Origin: a virus
Lineage: Monodnaviria > Loebvirae > Hofneiviricota > Faserviricetes > Tubulavirales
Length of the DNA: 8,117 bases
Reading direction: 5' to 3' (one strand)
IMG/VR virus record: IMGVR_UViG_2703718788_000001
In this document: positions 296 through 592 of the stretch, piece after piece
How positions within the stretch are numbered: position 1 is the first letter of the stretch
How the letters are laid out: every line of letters starts with the position of its first letter
Notes under the pieces: model-generated
Seen by the model: only the letters and a program-made list of their open reading frames with translations
Databases searched by the model: none
Told to the model about the DNA's origin: nothing
Made by a program: the position numbers and the translations under genes

Positions 296-478
296 TTATT
301 TTTTTTGGTTTCTTTGGTGGATCATGTCTTGTTTTGCGTCGTTTAAGTAGTTTTTTATCATAAAGTGTACAACTTCCGACCATGTAACTATTTGCCCTGT
401 TTTTTGGCTTATCTCAAGGGCTATTCTAGTAATATCCAGATATGTTGATTCTGTAATTGCTATTGCCTTTCTTTTCAT
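296..478 (-). CDS. Putative small DNA-binding transcriptional regulator (60 aa), divergent from the replication gene
   Basis: ORF with GGAG about 8 nt upstream of its ATG on the minus strand; basic N- and C-termini; divergent from gII across an intergenic region full of GTTAACA-type repeats, an arrangement comparable to the CTXphi rstR/rstA pair. No recognisable family by eye. Confidence 0.5.
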   Translation of the reverse strand: MKRKAIAITESTYLDITRIALEISQKTGQIVTWSEVVHFMIKNYLNDAKQDMIHQRNQKK

Positions 479-592
479 TCGCCCATCTCCATTGTTAACA
501 GTTTAACAAGACAACATTTTCACTTGACCCATAAAAATTATGAGTGTTAACCTGTTAACACTTTAACACCAGTGCGTTTTTTATTCGTTTTT
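479..592. promoter_or_regulatory. Divergent promoter/operator region: two copies of a 16-bp element TGTTAACA(G/C)TTTAACA (493-508, 553-568) plus an extra TGTTAAC (545-551); -35-like TTGACC at 524-529
   Basis: Repeats read directly from the sequence; each copy contains the palindrome GTTAAC; one copy abuts the regulator start and the other the gII start. Confidence 0.5.

Follow-up and report, generated by a model that had tools for sequence, protein, structure and literature searches.

In the XerCD-integrated inoviruses CTXphi and YpfPhi, a small leftward gene (rstR and YPO2273, respectively) lies beside a dif-like site, divergent from the replication gene rep, and occurs in allelic immunity types. 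RstR is a helix-turn-helix (HTH) protein of the XRE/Cro type, about 110 amino acids (aa) in length. YPO2273 has been called RstR-like, its role awaiting demonstration (PMC4266046; PMC12715192). Among proteins of the ribbon-helix-helix (RHH) fold, ParG of plasmid TP228, which acts at the O_F operator and the parH centromere, binds short boxes arrayed at a fixed period of 8 bp, in direct or inverted orientation, one dimer per box and cooperatively, and its operator array lies downstream of the -10 element (PMC3413123). MetJ of Escherichia coli recognizes tandem 8-bp palindromic met-boxes in runs of at least two, with one RHH dimer centred on each palindrome (PMC3413123). CopG (RepA) of pMV158, as cited in PMC3413123, is an RHH repressor of about 45 aa which acts on a rolling-circle initiator gene by occluding its promoter. 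Here we focus on a 60-aa protein encoded in an 8,117-nt stretch of viral DNA (IMG/VR record IMGVR_UViG_2703718788_000001; the whole stretch is called the window below), which by analogy is a functional counterpart of RstR and stands mechanistically closest to ParG, MetJ and CopG. In our reading, which we consider probable, it is an RHH regulator acting on 8-bp operator arrays that lie over the rep promoter, thereby repressing rep, and gene and operators together form an exchangeable cassette.

The first-pass annotation of this DNA, made by a model from the letters alone, had seen a basic 60-aa protein encoded divergently from the replication gene, and its coordinates are confirmed, with a pI of 9.7 and 10 lysines and arginines versus 6 aspartates and glutamates. 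The features on which the argument depends are given below; conservation refers to four variants of the locus with GTTAAC-type boxes (the window, ESC818, L024 and L025).

Positions 296 to 478, minus strand: regulator gene, 60 aa, phrog_2503 (open reading frame call).
Positions 487 to 490, minus strand: GGAG, Shine-Dalgarno sequence of the regulator gene, 8 nt 5' of its ATG (read from the sequence).
Positions 493 to 516, no strand: left operator array of three phased 8-bp units, TGTTAACA GTTTAACA AGACAACA, a putative autoregulatory site.
Positions 516 to 521, minus strand: GAAAAT, a weak candidate -10 element of the regulator promoter, GAnAnT being kept in the four variants.
Positions 524 to 529, plus strand: TTGACC, -35 hexamer of the candidate rep promoter, its TTGA core invariant in the four variants while the flanks diverge.
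Positions 545 to 553, plus strand: TGtTAACCT, putative extended -10 element of the candidate rep promoter, coinciding with the first unit of the right array.
Positions 545 to 568, no strand: right operator array of three phased 8-bp units, TGTTAACC TGTTAACA CTTTAACA, covering the candidate -10 element and the rep start site predicted near 559-562.
Positions 593 to 2593, plus strand: replication endonuclease of the P2 GPA type (Phage_GPA, 2.9e-48; phrog_91).

The repeats between the two genes are present as they had been described: TGTTAACAGTTTAACA at 493-508, TGTTAACACTTTAACA at 553-568 and an additional TGTTAAC at 545-551, all built on GTTAAC; the 8,117 bases contain four GTTAAC sites, three of them clustered within 66 bp. 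With up to two mismatches permitted, the 16-mer TGTTAACASTTTAACA occurs three times where 0.01 occurrences are expected, and in none of 200 shuffles. The copies are better understood as two arrays of three phased 8-bp units, whose starts lie 52 bp apart, and for the window alone the phasing at offset 8 was reached in none of 500 dinucleotide shuffles. The length of the region that holds them, first given as 93 bp, has to be revised to 114 bp, since Rep most probably starts at ATG 593 and not at GTG 572. ATG 593 is the RefSeq start in an identical prophage, and in the sister (71-aa) cassette a strong Shine-Dalgarno sequence, GGAGGGGAGC, stands ahead of the conserved N-terminus MTESAIL.

Across the four variants, whose regulators are 83-100% identical, the right array is the best conserved segment, with a mean pairwise identity of 85% and 19 of its 24 columns invariant; the corresponding values are 78% for the -35 hexamer, 63% for the left array, 48% for the spacer, 46% for the rep leader and 35% for the regulator leader. 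The left array keeps a fixed frame of three units, of which two are good in each variant (units 1 and 2 in the window, 1 and 3 in ESC818, 2 and 3 in L024 and L025), a pattern that reads as site turnover inside a constrained frame. Its distance to the -35 hexamer is 8 nt in L025 and 7 nt in the other three variants. The gene itself, judged by its codon changes, is real and under purifying selection: synonymous and non-synonymous changes relative to the window number 15:2 in L003 (90% nucleotide identity), 22:9 in L024 and 26:10 in L025 (77% each). Furthermore, the exact 60-aa protein occurs on 383 contigs, its name always being "hypothetical protein". These data bear on the simplest alternative, namely that the repeats arose by chance or from the base composition of an AT-rich region and that the reading frame is no functional gene. 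The intergenic region is indeed AT-rich (67% versus 52% for the locus) and GTTAAC alone is not significantly enriched over the whole window, but the shuffles, the conservation of the boxes while the spacers diverge, and the selection on the protein refute this alternative, to which we give practically no weight.

Comparison of related prophages links the boxes to the regulator. The expectation that the repeats would be conserved in related phages is borne out where the same regulator is kept, and other 8-bp boxes are found where it is replaced. In L001, Rep is 97.6% identical to that of the window and the 71-aa regulator 40%, and the boxes are CGCATGCG; in L009 (Rep 96.2%, 87-aa regulator 55%) the boxes have a TGCA core and form arrays of six and three units; in L003, with the most divergent Rep (91.5%) and a 96.7% identical regulator, the boxes are TGTTAACA, as in the window. 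The boxes thus track the regulator and not Rep, a strong argument against the possibility that the GTTAAC repeats belong to a replication origin, as iterons or as the hairpin of a minus-strand origin, read by Rep or by host RNA polymerase. Filamentous-phage origins do sit in intergenic regions beside the replication gene, and the single strand of this region folds better than shuffles (z -3.1). Still, the repeats are wholly changed between prophages whose Reps are 96-98% identical and kept with a more divergent Rep and the same regulator, the fold reaches only -10.8 kcal/mol in small local hairpins, which are a trivial outcome of palindromic units, and the two arrays do not pair with each other. 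An origin function of the repeats is therefore highly improbable.

The differences between regulators extend to the residues predicted to face the DNA. All four GTTAAC-type variants share R3, A5 and A7, and in the CGCATGCG-type regulator the equivalent positions are occupied by T, R and N; an arginine facing G-rich boxes would be a sensible pairing. The exchange of cassettes would also alter the translation signals of rep, since GGAGGGGAGC and a U-rich leader precede the same ATG in different cassettes: in the window, positions 569-592 hold no Shine-Dalgarno sequence and only that leader (GTGCGTTTTTTATTCGTTTTT). Two regulator cassettes stand in tandem in a recombinant prophage of E. coli AST205 (L004, 1630-2210). 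There, the 60-aa gene with its GTTAAC operator adjoins rep, and behind it follow a paralog of 71 aa and a gene of 62 aa (phrog_5219), the CGCATGCG operator being absent. A junction sequence of about 45 bp (…ATTGCTTCTTAGCAATCTTCGTATCGATAGGTAACTA…) is repeated on either side of this extra cassette and is likely a recombination point for cassette exchange.

The structure prediction proposed for the 60-aa protein in search of a DNA-binding fold points to RHH. With an alignment of 42 of the homolog cluster representatives described below, AlphaFold2 gives a predicted local distance difference test score of 94.9 and an extended segment at residues 1-9, followed by helices at 10-27 (helix A) and 33-59 (helix B). 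The extended segment holds the predicted ribbon, K2-T9 (KRKAIAIT). The modelled strand-helix-helix topology is that of an RHH monomer in a domain of about 45-60 residues, and the model was judged structurally similar to solved RHH proteins. Among the 42 family members, ribbon positions 6 and 8 are V, I, L, M or F in 85% and 100%, respectively, and positions 3, 5, 7 and 9 are hydrophobic in 0-2% and variable (R/Y/D; T/S/N/A; R/A/S/G/H; T/N/R/S). This alternation fits a strand with one buried and one base-reading face, as in an RHH ribbon. G28 is conserved in 34 of the 42 members and position 34 is T or S in all of them, with five residues in between, where the G-x-S/T/N turn of RHH proteins has one.

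Profile comparisons point in the same direction. Sub-threshold Pfam matches among the 42 members include ParG in six (best E 0.055), RHH_3 and VapB, and a profile search of the PDB places TTHA0139 (E 0.088) and ParG (E 0.14) below threshold, so that neither Pfam nor the PDB gave a significant match to a curated RHH family. In a direct hhalign comparison, the family profile aligns with the complete RHH domain of ParG at 71% probability (E 3.9e-5, a value for a single comparison); residues 56-74 of the ParG sequence used are confirmed by the PDB profile search. This alignment places KRKAIAIT opposite the ParG ribbon KRVNVNFD, and the ParG segment TDVVNQLVDNWL opposite SEVVHFMIKNYL. Alignments to CopG and to omega fall in the same register, both non-significant. 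From model and profiles together, the 60-aa protein very probably has the RHH fold.

The same arrangement recurs in other inoviruses. An exhaustive HMMER search of 1.84 billion proteins gave 44 cluster representatives, where a word-indexed homolog search gave only three clusters. In all of ten independent modules, from E. coli, lemur-associated Dulem viruses, Vibrio, and marine and other metagenomes, the homolog lies divergent from the replication module, which is its only constant neighbour at the loci examined. The Reps of these modules match four Pfam families, namely Phage_GPA, Rep_trans, Phage_CRI and G2P_X_C. Each intergenic region carries its own repeat, usually with 8-bp phasing, for example TGCTCACT TGCTCACA in Dulem virus 52, TTGTGAAC ATGTGATA in Dulem virus 56, CATGTATA CATGTGAT in the Vibrio phage and TTTAAACT TTTAAAAT TTTAAACA in L015. 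Summed over the ten modules, there are 47 7-mer matches at offset 8, compared with a mean of 7.0 in dinucleotide shuffles (sd 4.4, maximum 28, n=500) and a mean of 2.9 (maximum 19) in segments of equal length taken from other parts of these loci; the signal recurs as harmonics at offsets 16 and 24.

The right array covers what may be the rep promoter. In each of the four variants, TTGA(C/T)N is separated by exactly 15 nt from TGtTAACnT, a conserved arrangement which can be read as a -35 hexamer, an 18-nt spacer and an extended -10 element; the proposal combines manual reading with this conservation. Taken together, predicted fold, box conservation, co-variation and promoter overlap support, in silico, the repressor-operator switch that the first-pass annotation had suggested. 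On these sequence grounds we infer binding, with one dimer per box, repression in preference to activation, the two promoters themselves, autoregulation and a role in immunity. The RHH dimer would insert its two-stranded ribbon (KRKAIAIT) into the major groove, with R3, A5 and A7 facing the DNA. One dimer would sit over the GTT|AAC dyad at the centre of each (T/a)GTTAAC(A/c) box, a proposal that follows from the 8-bp period shared with the documented RHH array-binders ParG and MetJ. As with these two proteins, dimers on adjacent boxes 8 bp apart would bind cooperatively. Occupancy of the right array would cover the extended -10 element and the start site, thereby switching off rep and the downstream phage genes, and the left array, between the rep -35 hexamer and the regulator gene, would most likely serve to autoregulate the divergent promoter. 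Gene and operators would thus constitute an exchangeable cassette that sets the specificity, or immunity type, of otherwise near-identical prophages.

Several observations weigh against this proposal. The protein is, as first noted, of no recognizable family: Pfam gives no match, no RHH model reaching its threshold, and the PHROGs annotation of phrog_2503 is "unknown function". The AlphaFold2 model is a monomer, and the RHH fold is defined by a dimer with an antiparallel ribbon. Foldseek found nothing significant in the PDB, a comparison that is uninformative because the model is so small. In two of the ten modules (L001 and L013) there are no direct 8-bp tandems, and separated or inverted 8-mers are found instead. 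A sigma-70 consensus scan of positions 1-700 returned no promoter; the -10 hexamer of the candidate rep promoter matches at only three of six positions, which is why the scan missed it, and its 18-nt spacer is long. Finally, the candidate promoter of the regulator has no credible -35 hexamer.

The poor -10 element and long spacer would also suit an activator or bifunctional switch, in which binding to the left array stimulates an intrinsically weak rep promoter, and repression sets in only once the right array is highly occupied. The end of the left array, 7-8 nt upstream of the -35 hexamer, is compatible with such a role, and some RHH proteins, for example AmrZ and TraY, do activate transcription. 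Yet the best-conserved array covers the -10 element and the start site, the classical position of a repressor. The ParG operator likewise lies downstream of the -10 element (PMC3413123), and the analogous regulators of integrative inoviruses are repressors (PMC4266046). Activation is thus unlikely.

Beyond the repression proposed for this locus, we tentatively put forward a wider reading, which we judge a little more apt to fail than to hold. In it, phrog_2503 would be a widespread, unrecognized RHH family of the Inoviridae, phage If1 included, that serves as a plug-in control for unrelated Rep types; swaps of a cassette of about 300 bp would define heteroimmunity groups among dif-integrated prophages of E. 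coli, and specificity would reside in ribbon positions 3, 5, 7 and 9 and the matching boxes (R-A-A with GTTAAC; T-R-N with CGCATGCG). If this is true, the family would offer a natural series for reading the RHH recognition code, and the membership of If1 would imply a role in the homeostasis of chronic infection, beyond lysogeny alone.

If1 (L026, NC_001954), a classical phage that does not integrate, has an intact, unannotated phrog_2503 reading frame at about 5119-5322 on the minus strand (E 5e-27), within its "major intergenic region". Beside it lies an IS200/IS605 insertion sequence (IS) element, formed by an unannotated Y1 transposase and "ORF348" (OrfB_IS605/TnpB). The element parts the reading frame from the "minor intergenic region", which has TGTATACA-type palindromes 44 bp apart, and from ORF320, a Rep of the G2P type. 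The further stretches concerned are 5390-7086 and 7087-7463.

Compared with the systems named at the outset, the likeness to ParG extends over ribbon and both helices of a small RHH protein, at a similarity below the Pfam thresholds. ParG, in contrast to the 60-aa protein, begins with a long flexible tail and takes part in plasmid partition together with the ParF ATPase, a partner that the phage lacks, and the ParG boxes consist of 4-bp ACTC with an AT spacer where those of the phage are 8-bp palindromes. The operator units of MetJ (AGACGTCT) and of the phage (TGTTAACA) are both tandem 8-bp palindromes, but MetJ has 105 aa, uses S-adenosylmethionine as co-repressor and serves host metabolism, and no co-repressor site can be inferred in the 60-aa protein. 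The CopG ribbon KRLTITLS aligns in the same register as KRKAIAIT, with negligible sequence similarity; unlike the phage gene, copG is co-transcribed with repB, not divergent from it, and its operator is one 13-bp pseudosymmetric element instead of two 24-bp arrays. With RstR, the protein shares the placement of its gene, leftward between the dif-like site and a divergent rep, which is also seen at the loci of its homologs. It does not share the HTH fold: Pfam finds no HTH family in the protein or its family members, and the model consists of a strand and two helices. YPO2273 is likened to it by position and description only. Arc and Mnt of P22 have 21-bp and 17-bp operators with two half-sites, and omega of pSM19035 binds 7-bp heptads. 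The phage period of 8 bp differs from these, and the similarity to omega is non-significant. An omega-like RHH protein, ORF13, has been noted in one Pseudomonas inovirus, PMBT54, and the paper on UPphi lists leftward reading frames without assigned function.

Fold, operator logic and genomic role are classical; what is new is an unannotated family on which the literature consulted names no function. No new mechanism is revealed, but the assignment would let phrog_2503 be annotated with a function throughout the inoviruses. Pathogenic E. coli, Yersinia and Salmonella often carry filamentous prophages at dif, and the control of replication and virion production in these prophages is uncharacterized. 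Together with the boxes, the promoter overlap and the cassette bounds, the RHH assignment provides testable reagents, namely the protein, oligonucleotides of the operators, and a near-identical phage backbone with three natural variants of specificity.

Two further features complete the leftward operon.

Positions 98 to 253, minus strand: hydrophobic 51-aa reading frame (MQTTSDLILDLLIKHFVVDSITGMTMFGLITLVLPLVMTIHDKMNRRTDSF), 3' of the regulator gene and probably co-transcribed with it (open reading frame call).
Positions 33 to 68 (about), minus strand: putative intrinsic terminator hairpin closing the operon (predicted RNA fold of -33.4 kcal/mol with z -7.4; a U run follows).

The hairpin has a 10-bp GC-rich stem, an 11-nt loop and T/A runs on both sides, and is a probable bidirectional terminator; the long loop explains why a terminator scan of positions 1-700 missed it. 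The 51-aa sequence occurs in exact form on 24 contigs and has no match in Pfam or PHROGs. A further alternative is that the 60-aa protein is the antitoxin or regulator of an addiction or exclusion module formed with it, or else a ParG-like centromere-binding protein. Against the former, the 51-aa reading frame is retained, unchanged, whichever regulator cassette is present, and has no counterpart beside the homologs in the other inovirus loci examined. The 60-aa protein, moreover, ends with helix B and so lacks the C-terminal toxin-binding extension of a type II antitoxin. A partition function is opposed by the lack of a ParA-type domain in any of the nine phage genes (Pfam, PHROGs). Both variants of this alternative are very unlikely, and repression of rep remains the preferred function.

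As for its context, gene content and ends identify the window as one unit of an E. coli filamentous prophage of the XerCD type, integrated at dif and similar to YpfPhi. Its nine large reading frames make up a complete filamentous-phage gene set (Pfam and PHROGs): besides the replication endonuclease, it includes genes for a G5P-like protein, the major coat protein, a pIII-like attachment protein, a pVI-like protein, a Zot/pI morphogenesis protein and a pIV secretin. PMC4266046 describes a matching organization for YpfPhi and CUS-1. A dif-like site occupies bases 1-31, with the XerC arm TGCGCATAA, an 11-nt centre and then TTATGTTGAAA. The 12-nt sequence TGCGCATAATGT stands at both ends of the window, as its first 12 bases and at 8106-8117, and in E. 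coli 2015C-4136CT1 a copy identical to the window adjoins hipA and is followed in tandem by a second copy; repeat, dif-like site and tandem copies mark the window as one prophage unit. The gene hipA adjoins the prophage in the genomes examined. In the GenBank phage collection, megablast with the whole window gave no match, and the closest Rep there is 29% identical; Rfam found no RNA family in the window, and scans of genome contigs, one with the regulator alignment and one with Rep, yielded no confirmed locus.

The second copy in E. coli 2015C-4136CT1 (L023, 321500-326500) is 97% identical; an IS110-family element precisely at the rep start truncates it and thereby removes its regulator and operators. 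Megablast breakpoints at about 596 in H1 and H2 could be read as a module swap; in H1, however, the breakpoint is an IS110 insertion at the rep start, and for H1 the swap reading was rejected on that ground. Bases 22-91 match hundreds of E. coli chromosomes and plasmids at about 83%. In the gene for the pIII-like attachment protein, positions 4311-4640 hold 12.2 tandem copies of a 27-bp unit, which encode a Gly/Ser-rich linker (GGSSGGSTS); according to the UPphi paper, the copy number of such repeats varies among related phages.
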